This document shows, in pieces, positions 20,158-29,833 of a DNA stretch of 29,988 bases. Positions within the stretch are counted from its first letter, which is position 1. Each line of letters starts with the position of its first letter. The notes below the pieces were generated by a model, which worked only from the letters and a program-made list of their open reading frames with translations, was not told the DNA's origin and did no database searches. The translations under genes were made by a program, and so were the position numbers. Source of the DNA: an uncultured Candidatus Saccharibacteria bacterium (lineage in GTDB: Bacteria; Patescibacteriota; Minisyncoccia; Minisyncoccales; GWA2-38-27); the NCBI GenBank assembly GCA_964483075.1, contig CAYZZO010000001.1:1-29988 (forward strand). Reading direction: 5' to 3'.

Positions 20158-22119
20158 ATGGTAAAAAGAATATATGCAAGAAAAACATATAAGGAAGGGA
20201 AGGACAAAAAAAAAGAGAAAATTTACCGAGTATTTATTTTTTTAAGTGCTCTCTTCTTTTCTTTTATAGCTTTTTTGCTACTTATGTTTCTTTACTTCGC
20301 AAAAGACCTCCCACGACCCGAAGATTTTAACGAGAGAGAGCCAATTCAGTCAACCAAAATATACGACAGAACGGGAGAAATTCTGCTTTATGAGTTATAC
20401 GGTGAAGAGAAAAGAGACATTGTATCGTTAGACAAGGTTTCCAAACGCTTAAAAGAGGCCGTAATCGCCACAGAAGACGCTAATTTTTATAAACATCACG
20501 GCATAGATATAGACGGAATCTTCCGTGCCGTTAAGCTTGACCTAAAATCAAAGAGCTTTACTTACGGCGGTTCTACTATCTCCCAGCAACTTATTCGTTC
20601 TACGTTTTTGACAAACAAAAAAACTATAAAAAGAAAAATAAGAGAAATTATTTTAACATTAGAGCTGGAAAGACGCTATTCAAAAAAGCAAATTTTAGGA
20701 TGGTATTTAAATCAAATTCCATTCGGGCCTAATATTTATGGCGTCGAGTCCGCTTCTAAAACATATTTCAACAAGTCGGCTCAGTCGCTTTCTTTAGCTG
20801 AAGCGGCAACATTAACCGCTCTAATAAAAGCGCCAAGTTATTATTCAAGCAACGGAAATGAAGACAAATTGATAGGGAGAAGAAACTACGTCCTTGATCG
20901 AATGGAAGAAGAGCACTATATAAGCAAAGAAGAGGCAGAAAAGGCAAAAAAAGAAGAATTAAATTTTAATAGAGGCCCGCAGGCAATTAAAGCTCCTCAT
21001 TTTGTCCTCTATATTGAAAATTATCTCTTTAAAAAATACGGAAAGAACTTTTTGGAACAAGGAGGATTTAAGATTTATACTTCCTTAAATTGGAACTTTC
21101 AGGAAGAGGCGGAAAAAATCGTAAAAGAAGGAGCGGAAAGAAATAAAATGTATAATGCCTACAATGCCGCTTTAGTCGCAATTAACCCAAAAACTGGTGA
21201 AATTTTAGCTATGGTTGGATCGAAGGATTGGTATGCAAAGAAGAAAGAAGGGTGCGACAAGAAAACGGGAAGGTGCAAGTTTGATCCGAAAGTTAATGTC
21301 GCCACGTATAGAATAGGAAGGCAACCCGGTTCTGCCTTTAAGCCCTTTGTTTACGCTACCGCTTTTCAAAATGGATACACGGATAAAACTATCGTTGTTG
21401 ACGAAAAAACAGATTTTGGGGTCTGGGGAGGAAAACATTATATTCCCGAGAACTATGATGGCAAGTTTAGAGGAGCAGTAACTTTAAGGCAAGCCCTAGC
21501 TCAATCGCTAAATATTCCTTCAATTAAGGTTCTAATTAATTTAGCCGGCATAGCGAAAAGTATTGAAAACGCCAGAAAATTCGGAATCACCACTCTCAAT
21601 AAACCCGATTCCTTTTACGGCCCTTCAATTGTTTTAGGAGGAGGAGAGGTTAAATTACTTGATATGGTCTCCGCTTACGGAGTTTTTCCCACCGAAGGGC
21701 TTAAAATTAATCCTGTCTCCATTTTAAAAATCGAAGATTCTAAAGGAAACATAATTGAAAAGTCTAGGGTAAACCCTAAAAGGGTGTTGGATAAAAAATC
21801 GGCGCGATTAATCAATAGTATACTTTCGGATAACAAAGCGCGAGCGCCAATGTTCGGATTCAACTCGACGCTTTATTTTAAAAACTACAAAGTAGCGGCC
21901 AAGACAGGAACGACTAATAATTTTCGCGACGCTTGGACTATTGGCTATACACCCTCGTTGGTAGTTGGGGTCTGGGCAGGAAACAATAATAACGAACCTA
22001 TGTCTAAATATCCGGCAATAACTATAGCGGGACATATCTGGAGAAGGTTTCTCTTAAAAGTTCTTCCGAAAATCCCGAAAGAAAGTTTTATTTCTCCAGA
22101 AGAATCAAAAGAAAAATAA
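20158..22119 (+). CDS. Class A penicillin-binding protein (transglycosylase/transpeptidase, PBP1A-like)
   Basis: N-terminal TM, TEDANFYKHHGID, GGSTISQQL, YLNQIPFG. Transpeptidase motifs SAFK (SxxK), SLN (SxN) and KTG. Confidence 0.96.
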   Translation: MVKRIYARKTYKEGKDKKKEKIYRVFIFLSALFFSFIAFLLLMFLYFAKDLPRPEDFNEREPIQSTKIYDRTGEILLYELYGEEKRDIVSLDKVSKRLKEAVIATEDANFYKHHGIDIDGIFRAVKLDLKSKSFTYGGSTISQQLIRSTFLTNKKTIKRKIREIILTLELERRYSKKQILGWYLNQIPFGPNIYGVESASKTYFNKSAQSLSLAEAATLTALIKAPSYYSSNGNEDKLIGRRNYVLDRMEEEHYISKEEAEKAKKEELNFNRGPQAIKAPHFVLYIENYLFKKYGKNFLEQGGFKIYTSLNWNFQEEAEKIVKEGAERNKMYNAYNAALVAINPKTGEILAMVGSKDWYAKKKEGCDKKTGRCKFDPKVNVATYRIGRQPGSAFKPFVYATAFQNGYTDKTIVVDEKTDFGVWGGKHYIPENYDGKFRGAVTLRQALAQSLNIPSIKVLINLAGIAKSIENARKFGITTLNKPDSFYGPSIVLGGGEVKLLDMVSAYGVFPTEGLKINPVSILKIEDSKGNIIEKSRVNPKRVLDKKSARLINSILSDNKARAPMFGFNSTLYFKNYKVAAKTGTTNNFRDAWTIGYTPSLVVGVWAGNNNNEPMSKYPAITIAGHIWRRFLLKVLPKIPKESFISPEESKEK

Positions 22120-22181: not shown

Positions 22182-22190
22182 TGATATAAT
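22182..22190 (+). promoter_or_regulatory. Extended -10 promoter upstream of the PrgI/VirB4 operon
   Basis: TGaTATAAT, about 93 nt upstream of the ATG at 22284. Confidence 0.5.
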
Positions 22191-22283: not shown

Positions 22284-22706
22284 ATGCCTAAATATTCAAA
22301 AGAAGAGCTTTGGGGCTTGTACGATGGACTCCCCACAGAACTAAAACATGCTGTGTTTTCAGAAGAGATAGCAAACAATCTTTATAATATATACAAAGAA
22401 AGCGCCATAGAAGACGAAGGCAAGATGTCGCAAATCTCTGAAAATGTCGGATATGTTTTTCTCGGGTTGATTCCTCCGGAAAAATTTAAAAAAATACTAG
22501 AAAGGGAAGTTGGTCTTAAAAAAAACACCAGAGAAAAAATATATCAAAAAATAAATGATTCCATATTTTTCCCACTCAAAAAATGGTTGGATAGTCTCTA
22601 TGGTATAAAAATAAAAATAGAAGAGAAGCCAAAAATCTCTCAACCTAAAAAACCAACAGAGAAAAAATCAACAAAAAAAGATGTTTACAGGGAACCTCTT
22701 AGATAA
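22284..22706 (+). CDS. Hypothetical helical protein, first gene of the PrgI/VirB4 operon
   Basis: 140 aa ORF with clean boundaries and its own promoter. Ends with the DxYREP motif (KDVYREPLR). Function not recognisable. Confidence 0.75.
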   Translation: MPKYSKEELWGLYDGLPTELKHAVFSEEIANNLYNIYKESAIEDEGKMSQISENVGYVFLGLIPPEKFKKILEREVGLKKNTREKIYQKINDSIFFPLKKWLDSLYGIKIKIEEKPKISQPKKPTEKKSTKKDVYREPLR

Positions 22707-22775
22707 ATCTACCAAAGACCATAACCTAAACACCGACCCAATGTTTAGGTCATGGCGTTTAGTGTTGATAAATCT

Positions 22776-23201
22776 ATGCAATTTACTATCCCCCAATTTA
22801 TTGAAAAGGAACCAAAAATAATCGGACCATTCACTTTTAAGCAGTTCATTTTCATTGGCATTGCTGTCGCCATATGTATTTTTCTTTATTTTACAGTTCC
22901 TATGTTTGTGTTTGTTGTTTCGGCAATAATATTACTAGGAGGTGGATTCTCCCTAGCACTTTTAAAGGTAGAGAGAACCCCTTTGCCGACCATCATAAAA
23001 AATTCATTTCTTTTCCTCTTTAAGCCGAAACTTTATCTATGGAAAAAGAGAAATTTTACTCCAAGGGTCCTAAAAAGAGAGAGATTTCTAACCAGCCAGA
23101 AGAAAGAAGAAGAAAAAAAAGAAAAAGAGAATCCTCTTTTGAGTTTCGGGAAGGGCGGAAGATTAAAAAAATTATTTACTAATCTAGAAGTAAAAAAATA
23201 A
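22776..23201 (+). CDS. PrgI-family (VirB3-like) membrane protein
   Basis: Likely start MQFTIPQFIEKEPKIIGPFTFKQF (the track starts at 22752). Two TM helices. Lies upstream of a VirB4 ATPase. Confidence 0.8.
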   Translation: MQFTIPQFIEKEPKIIGPFTFKQFIFIGIAVAICIFLYFTVPMFVFVVSAIILLGGGFSLALLKVERTPLPTIIKNSFLFLFKPKLYLWKKRNFTPRVLKRERFLTSQKKEEEKKEKENPLLSFGKGGRLKKLFTNLEVKK

Positions 23202-23216
23202 TAAAATAGTCAATTT

Positions 23217-23849
23217 ATGGCAGGAGAATCAACTCAAAATTTTTTAGAATTCGACCAAATTAGAAACGGCGTTATCATTCTTAAAAACAAAGGTTTAAGG
23301 ATGATTCTGATGGTTTCTTCATTAAATTTTGCCTTAAAATCGGTTGAAGAACAGGACGCTATTTTATACCAATTTCAAAATTTTTTAAATTCTTTGGATT
23401 TCTCTTGTCAGATTATTGTTCAATCGAGGCGACTTAATATTACTGGATACATAGACAAATTAAAGACTATTGGGAAAAAAGAAACAAACGAACTACTTAA
23501 AGTACAAATCGAAGAATATATAAAATTCATAAATAAAATTGTCGGAGGAGGCTCAATTATGCAGAAAACTTTTTATGTGGTAGTTCCCTTTTCTATTTCC
23601 GAAATAAAAACAACTCGAGAAGGAGGACCATCCATAAATATCCCCACCTTCTCTGAAGAAATGTTTCAAAGAGCAAAGGTTCAACTTCTCCAACGAGTAG
23701 AGTTTACTTCCTTGGGTTTAAGGTCTTGCGGCCTCAGAGCTATTCCTTTAAACACGACAGAAATTATCGAGCTCTTTTGGGGGCTACACCACCAAAAAGA
23801 GGCAGAACGCGGCTATTATCCCGAATTTCCCCCAGAGTTAACGAGATAA
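23217..23849 (+). CDS. Conserved protein between PrgI and VirB4 (resembles the N-terminal partner domain of Gram-positive-type conjugation ATPases)
   Basis: 210 aa. Segments such as LNFALKSVEEQDAI...FLNSLDF..QI and its operon position. The family assignment is an inference. Confidence 0.6.
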   Translation: MAGESTQNFLEFDQIRNGVIILKNKGLRMILMVSSLNFALKSVEEQDAILYQFQNFLNSLDFSCQIIVQSRRLNITGYIDKLKTIGKKETNELLKVQIEEYIKFINKIVGGGSIMQKTFYVVVPFSISEIKTTREGGPSINIPTFSEEMFQRAKVQLLQRVEFTSLGLRSCGLRAIPLNTTEIIELFWGLHHQKEAERGYYPEFPPELTR

Positions 23850-23906
23850 ACATGGCCCCCAACCCATCTATCTACGCAATTAGATAGACATTAATGATTT
23901 AAAAAT

Positions 23907-25712
23907 ATGAAATTTCCTTCATTTAATTTCTTAAAAAGAGGTGAGAAAATCCCGGAAGTCCACAGGGAAGAACCTTTAAGGGTTGCAGATATCATTGCTC
24001 CTTCTTTTGTTCAGGTTGAACAGAACTATATTAAAGTCGGGGAACGGATTGCAAAAAGTTATTTTATTTTTTCCTACCCGAGATATTTAAGCAGCGGCTG
24101 GCTTTCTCCAATAATCAATATAAATATCCCGATGGATATTTCTTTTCACTTACACCCGGTTTCTAGTGAGAAAATTTTAAAAAAACTAAGAAGAAAGACC
24201 ACCGAAGTCCAAGCGGAGATAGAAGAAAGAGAGGAAAAAGGATTAATCAGGGACCCAACGTTAGAAGTCGCTTTTCAAGACCTGGAAACATTGAGAGATA
24301 AGCTCCAAACAGCTCAGGAAAGAATGTTTCATCTTAGTCTTTATATCACTATATATGGAAATACAGAAAAAGAATTGAACAGCGTTGAGGTCAATCTTCG
24401 TTCGATTTTAGAGTCCCGTTTAATTTATGTTAAACCGGCTATTTACCAGCAAAAAGAAGGGTTTATTTGTACTTCTCCTTACGGACTTGATGTCTTGGCA
24501 GATTCAACCCTGATGGACACCTCTCCCCTCTCAAGCACCTTCCCCTTTGTCTCATTTGATTTAAGCTCAAACGAAGGAATACTTTACGGAATCAATAAAC
24601 ACAATGAATCGCTTGTTTTGTTCGACCGTTTTAGCCTACCCAATGCCAATTCGGTAATATTCGGAACGTCCGGTGGAGGAAAAAGTTATAGCGTTAAATT
24701 AGAAGTGCTAAGATACTTAATGCTTGGCGTAGATGGAATAATCATAGACCCTGAAAATGAATATAAGTTCTTGGCAGAGGCTGTCGGCGGCTCTTTTTTT
24801 AATATTTCACTCGCCTCACCTAATCATATTAATCCTTTTGACTTACCAGCACCAAGAGAAGATGAAAAGCCAGAGGATGTTTTGAGGTCTAACATCATCA
24901 ATCTTGTCGGACTAATGAGGGTTATTCTCGACGGACTTAGCGCCGAAGAAGACGGTATTATCGATAGGGCAATTACAGAAACTTATGCCGCAAAGGACAT
25001 CACTATAAACAGCGATCCAAAGCTTTGGGGGAAGGAACTTCCTTTCCCGAGAATGTCAGACCTTGAAGATGTGCTTCTTGGAATGGAAGGAACGGAATCT
25101 TTAGTCAGGAGGATACAAAGATTCACGAAGGGAGTTTACTCAAGTTTTTTCAACCAGCCGACAAACATCGATATTAACAAAAATCTGGTTGTCTTTGGTG
25201 TCCGTGACATGGAAGACGAGCTCCGGCCAATGGCTCTCTTCATGATTCTACGTTATATATGGAATGTAGTTACCTCAAAATTAAAAAAACGACTGTTAAT
25301 CGTAGACGAAGCTTGGTGGCTAATGCAGAATGAAGATGGAGCCTCTTTTCTCTTCGGAACAGTGAAAAGAGCAAGGAAATACTGGCTCGGAGTAACCACT
25401 ATCACTCAGGATGTCGGCGATTTTATGAAATCAGAATATGGAAAACCAATAATTACTAATTCCTCGTTGGCCGTTTTATTAAAACAGAGTGCCGCCACGA
25501 TAGAAACGGTTAAAAAGACCTTTAATCTGACCGATGAAGAAAAGGTGATTTTACTAGAGACCCCAACGGGAGAAGGAATATTTTTTGCTGGGACAAAGCA
25601 TGTTCTAATTAGGGTTGTTGCGTCTAACGCCGAAAATCAGATAATAACCTCTTCACCAGAAGAGATTATGAAAATAAAAGAAGCCAAAAGAAGAGAAGAT
25701 ACAAACTATTAA
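23907..25712 (+). CDS. VirB4/TraC-like type IV secretion ATPase
   Basis: 601 aa. NANSVIFGTSGGGKS (Walker A), IIIDPENEY, INPFD, LLIVDEAWWL (Walker B), RARKY, TITQDV. Confidence 0.9.
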   Translation: MKFPSFNFLKRGEKIPEVHREEPLRVADIIAPSFVQVEQNYIKVGERIAKSYFIFSYPRYLSSGWLSPIININIPMDISFHLHPVSSEKILKKLRRKTTEVQAEIEEREEKGLIRDPTLEVAFQDLETLRDKLQTAQERMFHLSLYITIYGNTEKELNSVEVNLRSILESRLIYVKPAIYQQKEGFICTSPYGLDVLADSTLMDTSPLSSTFPFVSFDLSSNEGILYGINKHNESLVLFDRFSLPNANSVIFGTSGGGKSYSVKLEVLRYLMLGVDGIIIDPENEYKFLAEAVGGSFFNISLASPNHINPFDLPAPREDEKPEDVLRSNIINLVGLMRVILDGLSAEEDGIIDRAITETYAAKDITINSDPKLWGKELPFPRMSDLEDVLLGMEGTESLVRRIQRFTKGVYSSFFNQPTNIDINKNLVVFGVRDMEDELRPMALFMILRYIWNVVTSKLKKRLLIVDEAWWLMQNEDGASFLFGTVKRARKYWLGVTTITQDVGDFMKSEYGKPIITNSSLAVLLKQSAATIETVKKTFNLTDEEKVILLETPTGEGIFFAGTKHVLIRVVASNAENQIITSSPEEIMKIKEAKRREDTNY

Positions 25713-25737
25713 ATAGCTAAACCCAATACGTGATAAG

Positions 25738-26052
25738 ATGTCAGGAGAAAACAAAGTAAACGTTAAAGAAAAAAAGAAAAGCGGTTGGTTTCAAAAGATT
25801 CCCTCTGAGATTTTACTCTCTCCCGGAGGAGTGTTTTTAGTTATTTTCGCCCTTATAATGGAAATTATTGACATTATTCCCGTTCCCTTTGTTGACCAGC
25901 TATGGGAGATACCTATGGAAATTATTTTTATGATATTGTTGGTTGCAATAGCCAAAGTTCCCCTTAAAAGCCTTATAATTCCTTTCCTTATTGAGCGCAT
26001 CCCGATTGTAAGCGATATTGTCCCTTCATGGTTAATCCGAATGTTTATTTAA
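25738..26052 (+). CDS. Small hydrophobic membrane protein, last gene of the VirB4 operon
   Basis: 104 aa with a basic N-terminus and 2-3 hydrophobic segments. Confidence 0.7.
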   Translation: MSGENKVNVKEKKKSGWFQKIPSEILLSPGGVFLVIFALIMEIIDIIPVPFVDQLWEIPMEIIFMILLVAIAKVPLKSLIIPFLIERIPIVSDIVPSWLIRMFI

Positions 26053-26078
26053 TTATTGATTAAATCGTTGCCCAAAAT

Positions 26079-26135
26079 AAAAAAGAGCTTAAAGAATATT
26101 AAACCTATCACATGGTATTCTCTAAGCTCTTTTTT
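26079..26135. terminator. Bidirectional terminator-like hairpin between the VirB4 operon and jag
   Basis: aaaaaagagcttaaagaata / tattctctaagctctttttt: 20-nt arms with 1 mismatch and a 17-nt loop, between convergent genes. Confidence 0.7.
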
Positions 26136-26171
26136 GTTCTTTCTTAACCTTCGATTAAACTGACCGTATTG

Positions 26172-28462: not shown

Positions 28463-28471
28463 TGATATAAT
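28463..28471 (+). promoter_or_regulatory. Extended -10 promoter of dnaA (probably leaderless)
   Basis: TGaTATAAT ends 6 nt before the ATG. A TTGACA lies at 28446, but with only a 14-nt spacer. Confidence 0.6.
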
Positions 28472-28477
28472 TAAACT

Positions 28478-29833
28478 ATGACAAACGAAGAGCTTTGGCA
28501 ATCAGTCCTTGCCCGAATCCAACTAAATATATCTCAGGCAAATTTTGCAACATGGTTTAAGAATACGAAAATCGATTCTCAAAAAAAAGGGAAAGCGATT
28601 GTTTCTGTTCCAAATTCTTTTGTTAAGGAATGGTTAGAAAACAAATACAATAAAGACATCCTGAAAATAGTTTATGAAATTAATACTGATATTAAAAAAA
28701 TTGAATACGTTGTTAGGGAACAGAAAAATGAAACCCTAAAAAAAGTTCCAGACGTTCTACCTCAAACAAAAATAAACCAGCTCGATTTTCCCCAACTTAA
28801 GATTGATGGGAAAAGCAATCTCAATCCCCGCTATACTTTCGATTCATTTATCGTTGGCCCTTTTAATGAATTGCCGCACGCCGCCGCCATTGCCGTAGCA
28901 AAAAACCCTGGCTTTATTTATAATCCGTTGTTTATTTATGGTGGAACAGGGCTTGGTAAAACTCATATTTTACAAGCCGTTGGGAATGAAGTAATGAAGA
29001 ATTTTAAAAAAAAGAAAATACAATATATTCCTTCTGAAAAATTTACCTCTGAGGTGGTTTCTGCTATTAGAAACCATCAAATGGAAATATTTAAAGAAAA
29101 ATATAGGAAAGTCGATGTTTTGATTATTGACGATATTCAATTCTTAGCCGGAAAAGAAAAAACCCAAGAAGAATTCTTTCATGTTTTTAACGTTTTATAC
29201 GAAAACAATAAACAAATTGTTTTATCTTCGGATAGGCCGCCACGAGCTATCCAATCATTGGCAGAGAGATTAAAATCAAGGTTTGAAGGCGGAATGATAG
29301 CAGACATAAGCTCTCCAGACTTAGAAACGAAAATTGCTATTTTAAAAACAAAAGCTCAAGAAAAAAAAGTAGATTTCTCAAGCGATATTTATGAATATAT
29401 CGCCTCCATTATTAAAAAAAATATTAGAGAATTAGAAGGAGCGCTAAACCATTTAATTGTTTATCAAAAACTTAATGGTAAAAAACCTGACATTGAGACA
29501 GTAAAAAATATTTTTAAAGATTTATTTTCTGCGCCACGCTCTATAGTAACTCCGAAAATGATTATCCAAGAAGTGGCTAATTTTTATGAGATAAAAGAAA
29601 AAGACATTCTATCTGTTTCAAGAAAAAAAGAATTTGTCGAGCCACGTCAAATAGCAATGTATTTATTAAGAGAAGAATTAAACAGTTCTTTTCCCTCTAT
29701 TGGAAGAAAGTTTAACGGAAGAGATCATACAACCGCTATCCACTCTTATAAAAAAATTTCAGGAGAGATAATAAAAAATAAAAAACTAGAAGAAGAGATT
29801 GGTATAATTAAAGAGAAAATCTTAAATGGGTGA
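28478..29833 (+). CDS. dnaA: Chromosomal replication initiator DnaA
   Basis: NPRYTFDSFIVG, YNPLFIYGGTGLGKTH, DVLIIDDIQF, RLKSRFEGG, NIRELEGAL, domain IV RDHTTAIHS. Confidence 0.99.
   Translation: MTNEELWQSVLARIQLNISQANFATWFKNTKIDSQKKGKAIVSVPNSFVKEWLENKYNKDILKIVYEINTDIKKIEYVVREQKNETLKKVPDVLPQTKINQLDFPQLKIDGKSNLNPRYTFDSFIVGPFNELPHAAAIAVAKNPGFIYNPLFIYGGTGLGKTHILQAVGNEVMKNFKKKKIQYIPSEKFTSEVVSAIRNHQMEIFKEKYRKVDVLIIDDIQFLAGKEKTQEEFFHVFNVLYENNKQIVLSSDRPPRAIQSLAERLKSRFEGGMIADISSPDLETKIAILKTKAQEKKVDFSSDIYEYIASIIKKNIRELEGALNHLIVYQKLNGKKPDIETVKNIFKDLFSAPRSIVTPKMIIQEVANFYEIKEKDILSVSRKKEFVEPRQIAMYLLREELNSSFPSIGRKFNGRDHTTAIHSYKKISGEIIKNKKLEEEIGIIKEKILNG

Follow-up and report, generated by a model that had tools for sequence, protein, structure and literature searches.

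The DNA analyzed here is the contig C1 (29,988 bp, referred to in its full length as the window) of a 511-kb metagenome-assembled genome (MAG) in 74 contigs. The MAG is of the Nealsonbacteria/Paceibacteria type, originates from marine sediment, and is estimated to be 94.6% complete and 0.04% contaminated. An earlier note on the window had described five co-transcribed genes between positions 22284 and 26052, and five + strand open reading frames (ORFs) were found there, separated by gaps of 45, 15, 57 and 25 nt. In order, they encode an unannotated protein of 140 aa (orf140), a PrgI/VirB3-like protein, a TrsD-like protein, a VirB4 ATPase and an unannotated protein of 104 aa (orf104), and their spacing suggests that they are co-transcribed. 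Very probably, the operon encodes the inner-membrane motor of a chromosomal type IV secretion system (T4SS) that is typical of Patescibacteria, has no relaxase, lies beside dnaA in nearly all of them, and derives from the monoderm MPF_FATA conjugation machinery.

Products of the operon

The largest product, a protein of 601 aa, matched NF045971 (the CD1110 family of VirB4-like conjugal transfer ATPases) with 358 bits, above the curated cut-off of 325. In a search of the PDB, the protein matched the VirB4 C-terminal domain (4AG5; E 2.8e-41) and TrwK of R388 (E 3.8e-6), and it aligned with residues 203-772 of PrgJ of pCF10 at 25% identity (E 4e-40). The protein retains both ATPase motifs, Walker A (GTSGGGKS) and Walker B (LLIVDE), and lacks the first ~200 residues of a full-length VirB4. 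Homology identifies the 601-aa protein as an intact VirB4 ATPase.

The preceding ORF of 210 aa matched positions 103-233 of NF045975 (E 4.9e-9) and positions 2-129 of NF045971 (E 1.3e-4), and weakly matched the TrsD/TraD model NF041427 (E 0.0055; 16.5 bits against a cut-off of 200). A phmmer search of this protein against the PDB returned nothing meaningful. The "210-aa partner" of the earlier note is a real gene, and homology now identifies its product as a TrsD-like protein, that is, a putative VirB4 N-terminal domain supplied in trans.

The TrsD-like ORF and virB4 lie in one frame, with three stop codons (TAA, TAA and TGA) between them. Relatives were collected in a tblastn-confirmed scan with one genome per species, which returned 379; the synteny counts in this report use the best 80 of these, in which the identity of VirB4 is 64-81%. 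By their titles, nearly all of the 80 are Nealsonbacteria, Paceibacteria, Parcubacteria, "Saccharibacteria" or unclassified candidate phyla radiation (CPR) MAGs, and one is a Pseudomonadota. The two-ORF layout was found in 77 of the 80 relatives. In 75 of the 77 that have TrsD, it is a separate ORF of 202-229 aa, and the other two carry shorter ORFs, one of them at the edge of the locus. TrsD identity among the relatives is 53-75%, and both TrsD and VirB4 are strongly constrained. Since the two-ORF layout is kept in the relatives, it represents a natural split into TrsD and VirB4, as in pGO1-type systems, and not a broken gene. The possibility that VirB4 is a nonsense-disrupted pseudogene or a recoded gene was rejected on the three stops and on the conservation of the split across the relatives examined.

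PrgI matched PF12666 with 30.4 bits (cut-off 27), and the hydropathy profile revealed a hydrophobic hairpin at residues 23-74, as expected for a VirB3-like protein. Homology identifies PrgI as a VirB3-type membrane anchor. Sequence conservation of the TrsD-like protein and VirB4 indicates strong purifying selection.

The first gene of the operon, orf140, encodes a soluble helical domain of ~105 aa, a disordered and variable linker rich in K, E and P, and a conserved C-terminal D-x-Y-R-E-P-[ILV]-E motif, as judged from the alignment. An AlphaFold2 model built from the alignment of relatives had a mean predicted local distance difference test (pLDDT) score of 77, with six helices and a disordered segment at residues 109-129. 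The orf140 family was found in 61 of the 80 related loci by profile and in 52 by tblastn, and its domain occurred in 32 of 301 genomes sampled evenly across the phylum. Searches of orf140 gave no consistent match in Pfam and no family in NCBIfam. We considered whether the C-terminal YRE motif could be a secretion or docking signal shared with other proteins, and this was rejected, as no other ORF of the genome carries the motif.

The last gene, orf104, encodes a basic N-terminus (KKKSGWFQKIP) followed by at least two transmembrane helices in the alignment, and its AlphaFold2 model, built in the same way, had a pLDDT of 78. Profile matches were obtained in 43 of the 80 loci, on the ORF just 3' of VirB4. 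The matched ORF starts within ~110 nt of the VirB4 stop in 40 of these 43 loci, mostly within 20 nt, and an extra gene or spacer separates it from VirB4 in the other three. Neither orf104 nor 13 of its homologues matched Pfam, and orf104 matched no NCBIfam model. Fold searches of orf140 and orf104 against the PDB returned nothing with E < 0.8. A VirB2-type pilin identity of orf104 was not supported: the protein lacked a match to PF18895 or any other Pfam family, a signal-peptide-like N-terminus and a PDB fold match. Identification of either protein with PrgE, PrgF or PrgG of pCF10 was likewise rejected at the sensitivity of hhalign, which gave probabilities below 1%.

Conserved synteny makes it plausible that orf140 and orf104 are lineage-specific accessory subunits of the T4SS. 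A more specific proposal is that they are unnamed, dedicated motor subunits of the Paceibacteria T4SS, in which orf140 would be a cytoplasmic adaptor on a flexible tether that docks to or regulates the split TrsD/VirB4 ATPase, and orf104 a membrane stand-in for an apparently missing VirB8-type component; we hold this proposal only tentatively, at somewhat less than an even chance. The two families are not named in the survey of Patescibacteria T4SSs by Quiñonero-Coronel et al. (PMC12102498) and may match its unannotated "CPR profiles." Both lack annotation and accompany the motor operon; they are candidates for missing subunits and a small addition to a known system.

A membrane-anchored protein of ~310 aa is encoded between VirB4 and orf104 in two close relatives (L003:5935-6861; L008:8902-9645). 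In the present genome, its homologue lies on another contig (C32:5038-5970), after a ClpB-like gene, and the protein weakly resembles lipoproteins of the SCO4651 family (E 4.6e-5).

Table 1. Positions of the operon, its signals and associated genes (window coordinates unless a contig is named)
Feature	Position	Strand	Remarks
PBP1A, class A penicillin-binding protein (PBP)	20158-22119		upstream of operon; transglycosylase and transpeptidase domains
Extended -10 promoter-like motif TGATATAAT	22182..22190	+	motif match only; 94 nt before orf140 ATG
orf140, 140 aa	22284..22706	+	unannotated family accompanying the operon
PrgI/VirB3-like inner-membrane protein, 149 aa	22752..23201	+	PF12666, hydropathy
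TrsD-like protein, 210 aa	23217..23849	+	predicted VirB4 N-terminal domain as separate ORF
VirB4 ATPase, 601 aa	23907..25712	+	middle and C-terminal ATPase domains; NF045971, PF19044, PF12846
Walker A of VirB4	24663-24686		residues 253-260
Walker B of VirB4	25293-25310		residues 463-468
orf104, 104 aa	25738..26052	+	small polytopic membrane protein; unannotated family right after VirB4
Hairpin terminator	26076..26138	.	common to the convergent T4SS operon and jag; A-run 5', T-run 3'
VirD4/TrwB-like ATPase, single 805-aa protein	C43:477-2894		among housekeeping genes
VirD4/TrwB-like ATPase, 549 aa, with separate 452-aa N-terminal ORF	C2:21898-24924		among housekeeping genes

Inheritance of the operon and components elsewhere in the genome

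The order orf140-PrgI-TrsD-VirB4 was conserved across the 80 related loci, and tblastn placed TrsD next to VirB4 in 77 and PrgI upstream of TrsD in 74 of them. In these relatives, jag-yidC-(yidD)-rnpA-rpmH and the divergent dnaA come next, at a distance of 0-8 kb from the block. VirB4 (E <= 1e-10; identity 63-76%) was detected in 194 of 201 genomes sampled evenly from the order to which this genome belongs, including 164 of the 170 high-quality genomes, and in 146 of the 151 genera. The distances of VirB4 were correlated with those of DnaA, YidC and PBP1A (Mantel r 0.78, 0.67 and 0.74, respectively; each p <= 0.0005), and the mean pairwise distance of VirB4 was 0.29, compared with 0.36-0.46 for the other three proteins, making VirB4 the slowest evolving. 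By comparative genomics, the operon is inherited vertically, occurs almost throughout the order, is better conserved than DnaA and keeps a fixed place by jag-yidC-rnpA-rpmH/dnaA.

The earlier note had described the five genes as a T4SS core. The core is real, but it is not self-contained, as further components were found on contigs C8, C13, C2 and C43. VirB2-like pilins are present in the genome and absent from the window: two small pilins are encoded on C13 (7504-8430) and matched PF18895 with 37.1 and 34.0 bits (cut-off 26.6). On C8 (1-10605), the order, read towards KsgA, is ComM, a LysM-LysM-CHAP hydrolase on the opposite strand, KsgA, and proteins of 809, 921, 437 and 650 aa. The 809-aa and 437-aa proteins begin with VirB2-like pilin domains and end in large Cys-rich domains, the 921-aa protein is Cys-rich, and the 650-aa protein is a polytopic membrane protein cut by the contig end. 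The latter was the sole match in the genome to PF04610 (TrbL/VirB6) (E 0.0017; 16.1 bits, cut-off 25.9), and a direct hmmscan of the protein gave no match in Pfam or NCBIfam. Homologues of this VirB6-like protein lie in the virB4 neighbourhood in 31 of the 80 relatives.

In many relatives, a ComM-LysM/CHAP-KsgA-(pilin)-VirB6-like block stands directly upstream of orf140, with KsgA in 26 and the hydrolase in 22 of the 80 loci, in addition to the 31 with the VirB6-like protein. The present genome and its nearest relatives have RuvC-TyrRS-PBP1A in place of that block. In Nealsonbacteria-type genomes, the motor operon can thus lie at the origin and the pilin, VirB6-like and hydrolase genes of the system in a separate module elsewhere. 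Two VirD4/TrwB-like ATPases are encoded on contigs C43 and C2 (Table 1), and the one on C2 ends in a treble-clef zinc finger (PF23477).

Close relatives such as L003 have further genes between VirB4/orf104 and jag, whose products combine a signal peptide with a two-helix pilin domain of the VirB2-like type and large C-terminal domains rich in Cys; homologues of these genes lie on C8 in the present genome. Such a cassette of 2-4 pilin-fusion genes is a variable feature of this interval of 0-8 kb in the relatives (L003:5926-12818; L004, L008, L011, L012 and L067), and it is absent from the present window and from L005, L010 and L047. The cassette looks like a fast-evolving host-contact region.

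Class A PBPs synthesize peptidoglycan. The earlier note had suggested that the PBP upstream of the operon could remodel the wall for assembly of the machine. PBP1A, a wall synthase, precedes the operon in only a subset of the relatives; in a similar number it is inverted and found on the far side of dnaA. Since the position of PBP1A varies among relatives, its adjacency reflects synteny of the origin region and not functional coupling, and the suggestion was not supported. The LysM-CHAP hydrolase would be a more plausible VirB1-like wall-opening factor than PBP1A.

Mechanism, known systems and rival explanations

We propose that a hexameric ATPase, bound to the membrane, is built from PrgI, TrsD and VirB4. 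By analogy with established T4SS biology, VirB3 would anchor VirB4 at the membrane, and VirB6 would form part of the channel. Together with the weak VirB6-like candidate on C8, the ATPase could energize the extraction and polymerization of the VirB2-like pilins and pilin fusions encoded on C8 and C13, and also translocation through a channel across the monoderm envelope. The LysM-CHAP hydrolase on C8 would be the likely wall-opening factor, and the two unlinked VirD4-like ATPases on C2 and C43 may or may not feed the machine. In this scheme, orf140 in the cytoplasm and orf104 in the membrane would act as lineage-specific accessory subunits. By extrapolation from transposon sequencing (Tn-seq) of Southlakia epibionticum, the system probably serves an obligate host-attached lifestyle, and it probably does not serve conjugation.

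Systems of this kind have been described. Quiñonero-Coronel et al. (2025, Microb Genom; PMC12102498) analyzed 3,035 Patescibacteria genomes and found VirB4 in 2,417 of them, as a monophyletic clade nested in MPF_FATA. The most common associated component was TrsD, followed by PrgI/VirB3, VirB6 and VirB2-like pilins, including pilin arrays. Type IV coupling protein (T4CP) homologues numbered ~2 per genome and were mostly distant from virB4, relaxases occurred in just 103 genomes, and in Paceibacteria and Microgenomatia virB4 was located near dnaA, dnaN, rnpA, rpmH and ksgA (PMC12102498). Using Tn-seq, Wang et al. (2023, Cell; PMC10633639) reported that the T4SS genes of S. epibionticum, including the pilins, are essential for epibiotic growth, and that this T4SS has no recognizable relaxase. 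A 2025 review regards the Patescibacteria systems as a new, established branch of the superfamily of T4SSs (PMC12857230).

The present locus agrees with the Patescibacteria T4SS of PMC12102498 in its PrgI/VirB3-TrsD-VirB4 core, VirB2-like pilins, weak VirB6-like candidate, T4CPs unlinked from virB4, lack of a relaxase match, rnpA/rpmH/dnaA position, and KsgA adjoining the second module. We saw no essential difference; here the pilin, VirB6-like, KsgA and LysM-CHAP genes form a module on C8, and VirB4 and jag are not separated by the usual pilin cassette. The T4SS of S. epibionticum ML1 (SEML1_0006-0019; PMC10633639) is likewise of the Gram-positive type, with predicted pilins and no recognizable relaxase; its locus tags suggest a place near the start of the chromosome numbering, and its PrgI, TrsD, VirB6 and pilin array were reported to be essential (PMC12102498). 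Compared by description, it differs in belonging to the class Saccharimonadia, in having peptidase and lysozyme genes downstream of virB4, and in forming one contiguous cluster of ~14 genes, whereas the genes are dispersed here.

Among conjugation systems, the Trs system of pGO1/pSK41 and the Tra system of pIP501 (MPF_FATA, with separate TrsD and TrsE) also have TrsD directly upstream of the VirB4 ATPase and a VirB3-like TrsC before TrsD, which is the PrgI-TrsD-VirB4 order seen here. They differ in being plasmid borne and conjugative and in having a relaxase and a linked T4CP but no pilins, and the TrsD-like protein matched their TrsD model with only 16.5 of the 200 bits of the cut-off. The Prg/Pcf system of pCF10 in Enterococcus faecalis shares a PrgI family protein followed by a CD1110-family VirB4, but its PrgJ is a single protein of 796 aa, and it has a linked VirD4 (PcfC), relaxase (PcfG), hydrolase (PrgK) and adhesin (PrgB). 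The archaeal Ced DNA import system was not recovered: the match to CedB (NF041017) reached 37.6 bits against a cut-off of 700 and that to CedD 19.4 against 600, and no partner genes (CedA/CedA1/CedA2) were identified.

The locus is an ordinary instance of a known system and illustrates no principle beyond it. Its composition, lack of a relaxase, vertical inheritance and proximity to dnaA were reported in 2025 for thousands of genomes, and domestication and the candidate functions have also been published. The interpretation of the earlier note is essentially correct and repeats conclusions of PMC12102498 and PMC10633639; the system had been correctly recognized from raw sequence. The Patescibacteria T4SS is the first T4SS reported to be essential for its bearer, and it may be how ultra-small, biosynthetically poor epibionts obtain host material or manipulate their hosts.

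That VirB4, PrgI and TrsD originate from conjugation proteins of monoderm elements, and that VirB4 consists of two same-frame ORFs that at first sight resemble a nonsense-disrupted gene, could suggest a decaying remnant of a horizontally acquired integrative and conjugative element (ICE) or of plasmid-derived conjugation genes. Such a remnant would hardly be near-universal in the order, fixed between core genes in 80 relatives, and co-diverging with DnaA, nor would the TrsD/VirB4 split be conserved with both parts as strongly constrained as they are (53-75% and 64-81% identity). The earlier note had reported no relaxase, VirD4 or integrase in the window, and none was seen there; since the window comprises one whole 30-kb contig among the 74 of the MAG, absence within it tells little. 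In the genome as a whole, a search for the relaxase families PF03432 (Relaxase), PF01076 (Mob_Pre), PF08751 (TrwC) and PF02486 (Rep_trans) gave no match, and the one tyrosine recombinase (PF00589) is on contig C67, away from the operon. The linked coupling protein and relaxase of a conjugative T4SS or ICE were not found, and the two T4CP-like genes lie on other contigs. The GC content of the operon is 0.34-0.39, compared with 0.31-0.39 over the window, in agreement with the earlier observation of no obvious compositional shift. A cognate relaxase (of the four Pfam families searched) and integrase with a patchy distribution, which the earlier note had named as signs of an ICE remnant, were thus not observed, and we reject that explanation, which is already largely refuted and which we regard as extremely improbable. 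The domesticated chromosomal T4SS-like core that the earlier note had favored over an ICE is borne out by VirB4 in 194 of 201 genomes, the synteny in 80 relatives and the co-divergence with DnaA.

The chromosomal machine could export effectors, or be merely an adhesive pilus, for attachment to and manipulation of the host, which is possible though rather unlikely. This function is favored by the variable cassette in relatives, whose 2-4 genes encode pilin fusions with large extracellular domains rich in Cys, and by the pilin-fusion genes on C8 in the genome itself; such diversity resembles that of host-range adhesins, and Wang et al. suggested protein export or an alternative role (PMC10633639). 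Effector candidates or a common C-terminal signal were not found, the C-terminal motif of orf140 being unique in the genome; the T4CP genes are unlinked, and the Southlakia T4CP homologue was reported to be non-essential (PMC12102498). Slightly less probable, in our estimate, is that the same machine works as an importer that takes up DNA, nucleotides or other macromolecules from the host into the epibiont in the manner of Ced or ComB. The lack of a relaxase match (four Pfam families) would fit import, such organisms have no nucleotide biosynthesis, and the authors of PMC12102498 favor it; in Southlakia, ComEC is dispensable and the T4SS essential (PMC12857230). ComM adjoins the pilin/VirB6 module on C8 and in 11 relatives, and VirB4 weakly matches the archaeal DNA importer CedB (NF041017, E 1e-9). 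However, a score so far under the CedB cut-off reflects only the common fold of VirB4-type ATPases, no subunits specific to Ced or ComB were identified, and experiments in patescibacteria have so far not revealed which way transport runs.

Several points weigh against reading the operon as the motor of a Patescibacteria T4SS. The VirB6 assignment falls under the Pfam cut-off (16.1 against 25.9 bits) and concerns a protein cut by the contig end, and the pilin-fusion proteins of C8 score under the cut-off of PF18895. When the TrsD alignment was compared by hhalign with the PrgJ sequence alone, the N-terminal homology was not recovered, so that the TrsD assignment comes from the NCBIfam matches, all of them far below the full-length cut-offs. 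The relaxase search covered four Pfam families, and the MOBC, MOBH, MOBB and MOBM types were not searched. For the pilin-dislocase role of VirB4 and for the essentiality of the system, we extrapolate from distant systems. The MAG, 94.6% complete by estimate, is fragmented into 74 contigs, and the sole public run holding the locus is a marine-sediment DNA metagenome, with no RNA run containing the sequence.

Transcription signals and gene neighbourhood

The earlier note had assigned the operon an extended -10 promoter of its own and a bidirectional terminator, and candidates for both were located (Table 1). No -35 hexamer accompanies the TGATATAAT motif upstream of orf140, and the motif occurs 6 times in the window, compared with 1.3 expected; its use as a promoter is suggested by the sequence match. 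The hairpin downstream of orf104 has a predicted stability of -24.8 kcal/mol (z -8.7), and 0 of 200 shuffled sequences were equally stable. This stability and the flanking A-run and T-run make a bidirectional terminator plausible. A scan for consensus promoters and terminators found nothing beyond chance within the operon. That simple scan overlooked the terminator because its loop is longer than 8 nt, and it overlooked the extended -10 motif too; each was verified separately. A recognizable Shine-Dalgarno sequence was not seen in the 20 nt upstream of any of the five starts (22284, 22752, 23217, 23907 and 25738).

On the 3' side of the operon lie the convergent genes jag, yidC, yidD, rnpA and rpmH, followed by the divergent dnaA at 28478, so that ~2.4 kb separate the operon end from the dnaA start. 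The location "next to oriC" given in the earlier note agrees with this order of dnaA and rpmH. Canonical DnaA boxes (TTATCCACA, <=1 mismatch) were not enriched in the window (8 compared with 6.2 expected), and it is therefore the gene order that places the operon near the origin. A second perfect TGATATAAT extended -10 motif was seen within positions 28463-28478 of the window and ends 7 nt 5' of the annotated ATG of dnaA, a position that implies either a leaderless dnaA mRNA or a true start further downstream.

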